NCBI GenBank assembly: GCA_965224245.1
Contig: OZ245046.1
Location: 2,304,001 to 2,368,000, forward strand
From: Candidatus Eiseniibacteriota bacterium
Lineage (GTDB): Bacteria > Eisenbacteria > RBG-16-71-46 > CAZAMP01
Direction of reading: 5' to 3'
Length of the DNA: 64,000 nucleotides
This document shows, one piece after another, positions 54,593-57,361 of this stretch. Position numbers and translations under genes: made by a program. The notes beneath the pieces are model-generated. The model had not been told where the DNA came from. It searched no databases and saw nothing but the letters and a program-made list of their open reading frames with translations. Each line of letters opens with the position of its first letter. Positions within the stretch are counted from its first letter, which is position 1.

Positions 54593-55726
54593 TCAGGCCG
54601 CGCGCGCCAGCGAGCGCATCGCGTCGATCATCAGGCCGTGATCGATCTCACCCACGTCGACGGGCCGTCCGATGCCCTCGAGCAGCATGATCGACAGCGC
54701 GCCGCCCAGATGCTCCCGGAACTCCTCGAGTCCGGCGAGCACCGCCGCGGGCTCGGCCAGAGCCGGATGGTACAGCGAAAAGCCGAGCGCTTCGAGACAC
54801 TCCCGAATGCGAGCGCCCTCGGCCGGAGCGAGGAGCCCGGCCCGCTCGGAGTAGGCCACGTCGAGCGCGATGCCGATCGCGACCGCGGCGCCGTGGGACA
54901 GCGCGTAGCCGGTGACGGTCTCCAGACGGTGGGCGGCCCAGTGCCCGAAGTCCAGTGGACGGGAGTCCGTCAGCTCGAACGGGTCGCCGCCCTCGGTGAT
55001 GTGATCGAAGTGCAACCGGGCCGAGGCCTCCAGGAGTGGCCCCGCCGTGTCGAGATCGCGCGCGAGAATCGCGGGAGCGGCCCCTTCGACGCGCTCGAAG
55101 AGCGTTCGGTCCTTGATCAGCGCGACCTTCACGACCTCGCTGAAGCCCGAGCGCCAGGGCTCGTCGGGCAGCGACGTCAGGAGCTCGAGATCGTTCACGA
55201 CCGCCCAGGGCGGGGCGAACGTGCCGATGAAGTTCTTCTTTCCGAACGCGTTGATGCCGTTCTTGACCCCCACGCCCGAGTCGCACTGCGAGAGCGTGGT
55301 GCTGGGGACGCGAACCAGGCGAACCCCCCGGTGCGCGATGGACGCCGCAAAGCCGACCGTGTCGAGCACGGCCCCCCCGCCGACCGCGAGCACGGTCGAC
55401 CGGCGGCAGATGCCGGCGGCGTCCAGCGTGGTCAGGATCCGTTCGAGAGCGGAGCGGTCGTTCTTGATCGCCTCGCCCCCCGGCACGATCACGGGCGCCA
55501 CCGGCACGTCGACGCGCGAGGCGTGACGGTCGAGATAGGTCGCCAGCGCGCCGGTCAGCTCCGGCCGCGCCGCGGCGAGACCGCCGTCGACGAACGCGGC
55601 GACGCGGGCCCGATCCCGTCCGCCCGCGTCCAGAACGGACGCAAGCGTGGCGTTCGACGCCCCGAACACGTCGCGCGTGGTCAGGAGGCGATGACTGAAG
55701 CGGATCGAGAAACGCTGTTCGAGCAT
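54593..55726 (-). CDS. eboD: 3-dehydroquinate synthase-like sugar-phosphate cyclase, EboD-like
   Basis: PGGEAIKN, GGGAVLD, PSTTLSQCDSGVGVKNGIN, KVALIKD, RPLDFGHWAAH, HGAAVAIG, GLEEFREHLGG. Confidence 0.88.
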   Translation of the reverse strand: MLEQRFSIRFSHRLLTTRDVFGASNATLASVLDAGGRDRARVAAFVDGGLAAARPELTGALATYLDRHASRVDVPVAPVIVPGGEAIKNDRSALERILTTLDAAGICRRSTVLAVGGGAVLDTVGFAASIAHRGVRLVRVPSTTLSQCDSGVGVKNGINAFGKKNFIGTFAPPWAVVNDLELLTSLPDEPWRSGFSEVVKVALIKDRTLFERVEGAAPAILARDLDTAGPLLEASARLHFDHITEGGDPFELTDSRPLDFGHWAAHRLETVTGYALSHGAAVAIGIALDVAYSERAGLLAPAEGARIRECLEALGFSLYHPALAEPAAVLAGLEEFREHLGGALSIMLLEGIGRPVDVGEIDHGLMIDAMRSLARAA

Positions 55727-55932
55727 GGCGTCGATGCACTTGGTTGGCGAGTGGTGGGGACCGTCCGGCCGAATCAACGAGGTTCTAGCATACGGGAGCG
55801 GACGCCATCGCGCCAAGCGAGGCACGACGGGACCCGTGTAAACGGTCCGTAAAATACCCCCCGACAAGGAGTTGCCGACACCCGAGCCCGTGCGCTAGCC
55901 TGGATGACGTCATCCACGAAGGAGAGGTTCGC

Positions 55933-57312
55933 GTGCGCTGCAGCTCCCGTCGGTCGATCGCGATCGGTCTCGTCGTCCTCGCCGGCGCCGCCTGCCACGC
56001 GGGCTCCCGCGCGGGGGACGTCGCGATCGACGCGCGCGACGTCACCGCTCGAGGGGTTCCCGAGGGCGCCCTCATGCTCCAGCTCCTGGCCACCGCGCGA
56101 GTCGACGGCCAGGTACTGCCCTGCGGCTGAAAGGGCAACCGGGGCGGGTTGGCCCGGCGGGCCACCCTCATCGACTCGCTTCGGGCGGCGAACCCGAACA
56201 CGATCGTCGTGGATGCCGGCAACTTCAGCGACAACACGACGGGCACCGGCCTGCCCCTCAGCCAGTTCATCTGCGAGGTGTACGATCGGCTCGGCTACGA
56301 CGCGATCTGCCTGGGCCCGACCGACCTCCTGCACGGGCTCGACGCGTTCCACGTGGAGACGCCGATCGTGATGTCGAACGTCGAGGTCCGCGACGGCGAC
56401 TCGACGCGGCCCGCGTTCGAGCGCCATGCGATGCGCACGCTGCCCGGCGGTCTGCGCGTCGGCATCTTCGGGCTCCTGACCCAGGACCTCCCGCTGACCG
56501 TGCTCGACGCCGCCCCCGACATCGTCGTGAACGACCCCTTCGCCGTGACCGAGGAGATGCTCGACACCCTGGACCGCGAGGGCGCGGATCTCGTGGTGCT
56601 CCTGTCGCAGCTCGAGAACGCCCTGACCGACTCGGTCCTGGCCCGGAACCCGCGCATCGACGCCGCCGTGTGCGGGAGCACCACGGCCCGCCACCCGCGA
56701 CGGGCCCCGGAGGCGCTCGACGCCCGGGTCCTCTACCCCGTCTCGCGGGCCCCGAGCCTGGCCCACCTGACCCTGACCGTGTCACCCGAGGGCGACGTCC
56801 TCGACGCCGTCGCCACCGAGACCGACGTTCGTCACGCGCTCGTGCCCGATCGCGAGCTCGAGGCTCGCATGTCCGAGCTCTTCGTCGAGCTTCGCGAGCT
56901 TCGGGCCGAGACGATCGCGTCCCTCGTGACCGAGGCCGGCGGCGAGGACGCGGCCGACCGGTACGTCGGGTACGACGAGTGCGCGCAGTGCCACGTGCGC
57001 GAGCACGAGATCTGGAAGGGCTCGCCCCACGCGGGTGCGTATCGGACCCTGATCGAGCTGGGGCTCTCGGAGAACGTGGACTGCCTTCGCTGCCACGTGG
57101 TCGGCTACGGCCGGGAAGGCGGCTTCCGATCCGGGTCGGCCGAGCCCGATCTGGGCGGCGTGCAATGCGAGAGCTGCCACGGGATGGGATCGAAGCACTT
57201 CGAGCCGATCCCCGAGCATCGGCTGGAGGGCCTGTGCGTGAGATGTCACGATCAGGAGAACTCGCCCGACTTCGACCTCGACGTCTACCTCGAGCAGATC
57301 CGGCACTGGTAG
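55933..57312 (+). CDS. candidate selenoprotein: UshA/5'-nucleotidase-like domain (CxU) fused to tetraheme cytochrome c (c554-like); probable lipoprotein
   Basis: ORFs 55933-56130 and 56149-57312 share one frame. TGA 56128-56130 falls in PCG*KGNRGGLARRAT. Four CxxCH motifs (CAQCH, CLRCH, CESCH, CVRCH). Confidence 0.8.
56146..56167 (+). promoter_or_regulatory. putative bacterial SECIS hairpin
   Basis: GGGT-(T bulge)-GGCCC-GGC-GGGCC-ACCC: 9 bp stem, bulged U, G-led loop, starting 16 nt after the UGA. Confidence 0.6.
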
Positions 57313-57361
57313 CGCGCGCTCGCCGGCCCCTCGACGCCCGCGCGATCGCGGCGCCTCGACC

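Follow-up and report, generated by a model that had tools for sequence, protein, structure and literature searches.

The window analysed here is the whole stretch of 64,000 nucleotides from a Candidatus Eiseniibacteriota bacterium (contig OZ245046.1, positions 2,304,001 to 2,368,000), and its positions 55933..57312 on the plus strand hold a gene of 459 codons followed by TAG, in which one in-frame TGA almost certainly encodes selenocysteine (Sec) within an exported four-haem protein. The gene begins at GTG 55933, the earliest start codon following a stop in its frame, and a Shine-Dalgarno-like AAGGAG, read directly at 55919..55924 of the same strand, lies 8 nucleotides upstream of it. From there to the TAG at 57310-57312 the sole internal stop is TGA 56128-56130, and the read-through product has 459 residues with the sequence ...LPCGU66KGNRGGLARRATLI... 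around the reassigned codon. An earlier note on this DNA had described open reading frames (ORFs) of 65 and 387 amino acids in one frame, split by this TGA and giving 459 residues on read-through, and the frame is indeed organized in this way. Coding bias is continuous across the TGA, with a G+C content at third codon positions of 0.89 in 55933-56127 and 0.93 in 56131-57309 as compared to 0.65 in the 144 bases upstream of the start. The G+C content of the whole window is 70.8%, and numerous overlapping ORFs on both strands are due to this high G+C composition.

Standard gene callers report the 387-residue ORF alone (56149..57312, plus strand), which starts at TTG and has no signal peptide, and a protein of this length in the public library, P0002, is identical to residues 73-459 of the full product. 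Truncation with loss of the export signal, anticipated in the earlier note, has thus occurred in the public gene call. The annotation requires correction, as the public call drops the signal for export together with the single motif that is invariant in the N-terminal domain. The product left over resembles a cytochrome of the cytoplasm, an untenable result, and export is needed since this signal-less ORF bears four c-type haem motifs.

The N-terminal sequence, VRCSSRRSIAIGLVVLAGAAC, contains RCSSRRS followed by a hydrophobic run and A-G-A-A-C21, and judged from its sequence looks like a signal peptide (55933..55995, plus strand), ending in a possible lipobox L-A-G-A-A-C21 with Cys21 at 55993-55995. 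In the structural model this region has low confidence, the predicted local distance difference test (pLDDT) values being <50 over residues 1-4, 6-16 and 22-29. Clearer lipoboxes, such as L-V-S-C and V-V-G-C, are found ahead of the domain in several relatives. The protein would be exported and probably lipid-anchored.

Selenocysteine codon and the downstream hairpin

The invariant motif of the family, Cys64-Gly65-Sec66 (TGC GGC TGA), is located at 56122..56130 of the plus strand, and C64 and C/U66 are kept in 79/79 alignment rows with residues at these positions. In a first set of relatives the motif was seen in 25 of 27 homologous copies, with TGA in 20 and TGC or TGT in 5 of them at the same column, while one of the two motif-less copies belongs to the Sec forms but is truncated at the end of its locus. 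The relatives are similar on both sides of the TGA, and in every relative this similarity extends upstream of it. A second set of 66 loci, collected with patterns derived from this single protein and hence biased to close relatives, contained 43 TGA forms and 15 Cys forms, with the motif found by pattern in 49 of the loci and the remaining 17 being cut or divergent. The second set is not independent of the first because some genomes recur. By hand count, 42 of its 66 loci come from metagenome-assembled genomes labelled Candidatus Eisenbacteria or Eiseniibacteriota. Furthermore, homologues are present in 61/61 related genomes of the same class (a tally that takes in the unpublished genome G053, of which no sequence was used), and most full-length matches contain exactly one TGA.

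The genome examined (6.94 Mb in 27 contigs) encodes the machinery for selenocysteine insertion. Matches above cut-off were obtained for selA (515.8 bits), selB (324 bits, or 353.4 when a C-terminal piece is included), selD (378.4 bits) and tRNA-Sec (71.9 bits). The selD match, at C1:4218184-4219107, holds one in-frame TGA, hence SelD in this genome is probably also a selenoprotein. The tRNA-Sec gene, at C1:2266369-2266462, is located ~37.5 kb ahead of the first base of the window, and adjoining it at C1:2265005-2265688 is a GTPase that matches the selB model with 67.5 bits, below the cut-off. L010 and L013 are the loci of selD and tRNA-Sec, respectively.

Downstream of the TGA, a hairpin of the selenocysteine insertion sequence (SECIS) type spans 56146..56167 on the plus strand and overlies the codons for G-L-A-R-R-A-T. 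It reads GGG-U-UGGCCC / GGC / GGGCCA-CCC, its nine pairs being divided by a bulged U at 56149 into a lower run of three and an upper run of six, capped by a GGC loop at 56156-56158. The hairpin lies 15 nucleotides downstream of the UGA and its loop starts 28 nucleotides after the U of the UGA. The bacterial SECIS consensus has a G near the start of the apical loop and places this loop ~16-37 nucleotides from the UGA, and the spacing and loop G of the window hairpin fit this consensus.

Support for the hairpin comes from its linkage to TGA among the relatives. The core G[CT]CCGGNGGG[CT] was found in 19/20 TGA forms versus 0/5 Cys forms of the first set, and in 43/43 TGA forms versus 0/15 Cys forms of the second, and the G-G-L-A-R-R-A codons spell the hairpin after every TGA in the relatives. 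The lone TGA form without the core (L046) reads GGCUC/GAGUC, where a C-G pair has been replaced by U-A in a compensatory manner. TGA forms fold locally with a mean energy of -15.1 kcal/mol, as compared to -8.5 for Cys forms. In a 7-bp helix aligned across all 20 TGA forms, 92.5% of the cells are paired, a value reached by 0/500 shuffles, whereas slid registers of the same helix are 25-51% paired. The pair formed by the Leu wobble and the second Ala wobble position is GC in 10, GU in 4, CG in 3, AU in 1 and UG in 1 of these forms and unpaired in none, and this covariation of two synonymous wobble positions, otherwise hard to explain, argues for an RNA structure. Thus, the hidden selenoprotein claimed in the earlier note is borne out by the alternation of TGA and Cys at codon 66 with conservation on both flanks, by the presence of the Sec machinery, and by the TGA-linked hairpin, whose nine pairs, bulged U and G-led loop are as that note had described them.

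A 5'-nucleotidase-like fold joined to a tetrahaem domain

Residues ~45-305 (56065..56847, plus strand) form a 5'-nucleotidase-like domain of calcineurin fold. A profile of the relatives searched against the PDB placed 5'-nucleotidases at the top with E 2.9e-31, followed by SoxB at ~2e-14, and SoxB was matched by 22/24 relatives. An AlphaFold model built from an 86-row alignment (pLDDT 89.3, predicted TM-score 0.81) likewise retrieved 5'-nucleotidases first in Foldseek, with 5h7w at E 1.8e-20. Pfam gave no match to Metallophos (PF00149) at E up to 0.1.

The metal ligands of this fold are lost, and the degenerate metallophosphoesterase site proposed in the earlier note was found in the corresponding columns of the 86-row alignment. 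At position 56, the first Asp, the family has D in 32, E in 12 and S in 11 rows and the window protein R; at position 58, the first His, it has R in 19 and K in 10 with no His at all, and the window protein D. The bridging Asp at position 97 is D in 41, N in 26 and G in 14 rows and N in the window protein, while the His positions 226 (H in 39 rows, Q in 22) and 249 (H in 44) are occupied here by Q and S, respectively. The GNHEFD stretch of the solved enzymes aligns with l-g-e-r-e-L of the family, such that GNHE of solved 5'-nucleotidases becomes G-E-R-[DE] in the family and G-P-T-D here; its N-H, positions 129-130, is accordingly E/P and R in the family and P-T in the window protein. Hence, none of the elements of the two-metal motif (DxH, GD, GNHE, H and GH) is intact in the window protein, which has R56-V-D58, G-N97, G-P-T-D131, Q226 and S249 in their place. 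Ligand loss at the DxH histidine (58) and at the N-H of GNHE is family-wide, and the window copy has gone furthest in it. The invariant residues are others, namely C64, U/C66, G71 and G72 (79/79 rows), and R75 is kept in 76/83.

A long helix at residues 307-335 (56851..56937, plus strand), assigned by DSSP on the model, connects this domain to the C-terminal part. 5'-nucleotidases have a comparable long helix. Their substrate-binding domain was not found in this protein, whose C-terminus is a cytochrome domain, and this haem domain probably stands where the substrate-binding domain would be, provided that the correspondence of the two helices holds.

The C-terminal domain (56950..57309, plus strand) is a cytochrome c554-like tetrahaem domain, scoring 55.7 bits with PF13435 against a gathering cut-off of 20.8, and matching cytochrome c554 (PDB 1bvb) at E 9.3e-12 in an alignment that keeps the order of the first three haem motifs. 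The four C-terminal CxxCH motifs counted in the earlier note are located at 56980-56994, 57082-57096, 57166-57180 and 57235-57249 on the plus strand, and each is invariant in 86/86 rows. Conserved distal His residues of this domain, outside the motifs, are H366 (86/86 rows), H422 (86/86) and H458 (82/86), and in the same alignment no further His or Met column within residues 300-459 reaches 40%. Since three conserved non-motif His serve four haems, one haem would lack a conserved sixth ligand there.

Compared with UshA, CD73 and SoxB, which are two-metal hydrolases of calcineurin fold, the protein shares the fold of the N-terminal domain and the long linker helix, but it is devoid of metal ligands, carries Cys-Gly-Sec inserted after motif I and has the tetrahaem domain in place of the C-terminal nucleotide-binding domain. 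With Nitrosomonas cytochrome c554 (PDB 1bvb, 1ft5; PF13435) it has in common the four haems and the order of the first three motifs, whereas the tetrahaem unit is here a domain of a larger protein and the extra conserved H422 of the family, after the third motif, is absent from the c554 alignment.

Other domain combinations occur in the family. Among 8 long or fused relatives scanned, two, P0035 (627 residues; PF01323, E 3.4e-8) and P0040 (1207 residues), include a DsbA-like thioredoxin domain in their polypeptide. In P0062 the fusion partner of the UshA-like/tetrahaem unit is a DUF1573 Ig-like domain, and forms of ~860-950 residues have an N-terminal half of ~450 residues without a Pfam match.

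Family membership and genomic setting

The best NCBIfam model for the protein is NF041198, 'UshA_like_PCGU', described as UshA-like (seleno)protein, with E 3.2e-57 and 194.3 bits. The match consists of two stretches, of which residues 301-448 align to positions 359-517 of the 519 in the model. The protein has the motif of this family as L-P-C64-G65-U66, and its architecture of a UshA-like domain with a C-terminal multihaem domain as well, and the model matches 24/24 aligned relatives with a best E of 4.9e-90. Its identity as a UshA-like tetrahaem selenoprotein can be assigned with very high confidence. Because the 519 positions of NF041198 include the haem domain and its name is that of the PCGU motif, the tetrahaem fusion is part of the catalogued family. 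Thus, although the fusion of a C-G-Sec UshA-like domain to a tetrahaem cytochrome claimed in the earlier note is real, as judged by NF041198 and PF13435, its novelty was overstated: the gene adds a divergent member to the UshA-like selenoproteins already catalogued and does not define a kind of its own. With this family it shares P-C-G-U, the 5'-nucleotidase-like N-terminal domain, the C-terminal four-haem domain, export, and either Sec or Cys in the corresponding column; it differs in that the metal ligands still retained by many members are all gone.

Membership in NF049981, 'UshA-like (seleno)protein family 2', was considered and rejected, since residues 49-131 match it weakly (34.7 bits against a cut-off of 140) and the motif is CxU and not the CxxU of that family. 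In NF049981, Sec likewise lies close to the first metal motif of a UshA-like domain, but the model, of 262 positions, does not extend over a haem domain.

The family has a history in selenoprotein catalogues. The selenoprotein table of a 2008 ocean-sampling paper holds an entry 'COG0737, UshA-like' with the motif CxU, and the same paper names the UshA-like family among the few major ones lacking a Cys-based redox motif (PMC2398784). Listings of selenoproteins in reviews of 2022 and 2026 include 'UshA-like protein', the 2026 one under NF041198, and also the second family NF049981 with CxxU (PMC9312934, PMC13188914).

In this genome there are three TGA-bearing UshA-like copies, of which the third, C1:5175192-5176142, matches residues 4-327 alone and appears to be without a haem domain. 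The closest relative of the window copy is 41% identical to it, and the placement of the window copy relative to the copies described below that are linked to LptD rests on such pairwise identities.

In contrast to most related loci, the window copy is alone, lying on the plus strand between two minus-strand genes, one for 3-dehydroquinate synthase (54593-55867), which is divergent, and one for a methyltransferase (57362-58216), which is convergent. A lipid-related run follows on the minus strand at 58128-62135, comprising a GDSL lipase, a FadL/TodX-type outer-membrane transporter and a FabH-like ketoacyl-ACP synthase III. In 16/20 widened related loci (L049-L068), a gene of LptD type encoding 1200-1470 residues is located just upstream on the same strand, as exemplified by L049:3075-6764 and L068:9997-14409 (PF19838, LptD_2; E 3.8e-71 for L049). 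This linkage includes a paralogous pair in this genome, C1:2986677-2989551, within the region C1:2986677-2994085. As all the loci belong to one class, the linkage may be inherited gene order.

Genes resembling ROK kinases and Mur ligases often precede the LptD-type gene, and genes for cystathionine beta-synthase and gamma-lyase follow in 5-6 loci. Paralogues with Cys and Sec forms often lie in tandem within ~3 kb, as at C1:2986677-2989551, L030:1528-4377 and L057, and also at L070, L071, L074, L079, L092, L108 and L111. The window copy has no tandem Cys-form partner.

Proposed mechanism and alternatives

The best overall explanation of the locus, held with good though not complete confidence, is a single gene for an exported Sec protein in which a gutted 5'-nucleotidase fold is combined with four haems, an explanation built on the frame, the Sec/Cys alternation, the hairpin, the Sec machinery, the folds and the ligand loss as observed by computation. 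UGA codon 66 would be decoded as selenocysteine with the aid of the hairpin 15 nucleotides downstream. In the 5'-nucleotidase-fold domain, Cys-Gly-Sec in the loop past the first metal motif would take the place of the missing two-metal site, and the long helix would link this domain to the c554-like domain binding four c-type haems. Such a protein would not be a hydrolase. Cys64 and Sec66 would form the active site, most simply as a pair cycling between selenol/thiol and selenenylsulfide, or alternatively their substrate may be a protein thiol or a compound of sulfur or selenium, and electrons would pass between this site and the periplasmic electron pool via the four haems. The DsbA-like fusions in P0035 and P0040 fit thiol chemistry and hint at thiol redox. 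This mechanism, of a non-hydrolase with a Cys/Sec redox site wired to haems, is put forward tentatively; the non-hydrolytic scaffold presenting a CxU site to haems, as suggested in the earlier note, is a reasonable proposal.

A different role for the same residues, rather unlikely though the main rival, is that Cys64 and Sec66 serve in ligation rather than as a redox couple, binding a metal in the old pocket or acting as the sixth ligand or close partner of the open haem. Consistent with this role, there are three conserved non-motif His residues (H366, H422 and H458) for four haems, and haem motifs one to three are collinear with those of cytochrome c554, which has one five-coordinate haem. 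The retention of D56, D97, H226 and H249 in many relatives also favours ligation, but in the window protein R56, N97, Q226 and S249 leave no old ligand beside C64 and U66, and the fusions with DsbA domains fit thiol exchange better. Were the haem version of ligation true, it would amount to a Sec/Cys-haem catalytic centre.

The more specific proposal that Cys-Gly-Sec and an open c-type haem constitute a new catalytic centre, with Sec working with the haem or bound to it, is doubtful; it is suggested because the motif sits in the old metal site, the haem domain replaces the domain that closes the pocket and one haem lacks a conserved sixth ligand. Its substrate might be a compound of sulfur or selenium, or else protein thiols of the envelope. 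TsdA and SoxAX are enzymes of sulfur metabolism with His/Cys-ligated haems, in which a thiol-type residue is placed beside a c-type haem and the compounds acted on are periplasmic, and purely by analogy, no relation in sequence or fold having been found or looked for, the window protein may work alike.

Explanations that dispense with a single functional selenoprotein gene fare far worse. That the TGA is a true stop, ending a 65-residue peptide ahead of a separate 387-residue cytochrome gene starting at TTG 56149, agrees with the public gene calls, which yield the 387-residue product, and with the standard ORF listing, which splits the region. It is nevertheless highly improbable, given the similarity upstream of the TGA in every relative, Cys at the same position in 5/25 copies, the hairpin tied to the TGA, the unbroken coding bias and the absence of an export signal from a product with four c-type haem motifs. 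Equally improbable is a pseudogene with a recent nonsense mutation, or a TGA that is an assembly error. This copy is orphaned from the conserved gene cluster and its ligands are the most degenerate of the family, as might be expected of a decaying gene; however, the TGA is exactly at the family's Sec position and is accompanied by the family's hairpin, the frame has no other defect and every invariant residue is kept. Furthermore, contigs from two runs, independently assembled, cover 55800-57400 with 0 differences and read TGA, not TGC or TGG, at 56128, both runs being of one sample that is possibly the source of the assembly itself. A working 5'-nucleotidase or SoxB-type hydrolase is likewise very improbable in spite of the homology in fold and sequence to these enzymes, as no compared metal-binding position keeps its ligand residue in the window protein and the haem domain replaces the C-terminal substrate-binding domain.

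Some observations weigh against the preferred reading of an exported redox selenoprotein with a gutted hydrolase fold. The shared sample of the two runs is one of these. For the hairpin, the single-sequence fold of 56120-56190 is no better than chance (z = 0.19, with 111/200 shuffles folding equally well), for which reason the comparative evidence was used, and a search of 56050-56300 against Rfam at E up to 10 returned no SECIS family but two small-RNA matches at chance level (E 4.1 and 6). As regards the family, the protein with its 194.3 bits misses the curated NF041198 cut-off of 275 bits, which no match to this model in the genome reaches. Concerning the active site, other members keep part of the metal site (D56 in 32 rows, D97 in 41, H226 in 39 and H249 in 44), so that metal could matter in the family at large. 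On function, the genes neighbouring this copy in the window (dehydroquinate synthase, TatD-like, methyltransferase, GDSL lipase, FadL-type porin and FabH) provide no lead, and the entries on the UshA-like family in PMC2398784, PMC9312934 and PMC13188914 state none. Literature searches on selenocysteine together with cytochrome c554 and nucleotidase, and on selenocysteine in Eisenbacteria, returned no paper, and an experiment on any member was not found.

The function of the family is thus the central question, and this copy is no easier a test case for it than the known members. The family is large, a representative library containing 7781 matching proteins at an E limit of 0.001 and 275 at the stricter limit of 1e-30, and a selenol in a gutted hydrolase pocket wired to four haems makes it a clear target for biochemistry. 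If the Sec-haem centre were real, the operon copies adjacent to the LptD-type gene in this class, whose relatives are labelled Candidatus Eisenbacteria, would themselves be central to envelope biogenesis as a core part of it.

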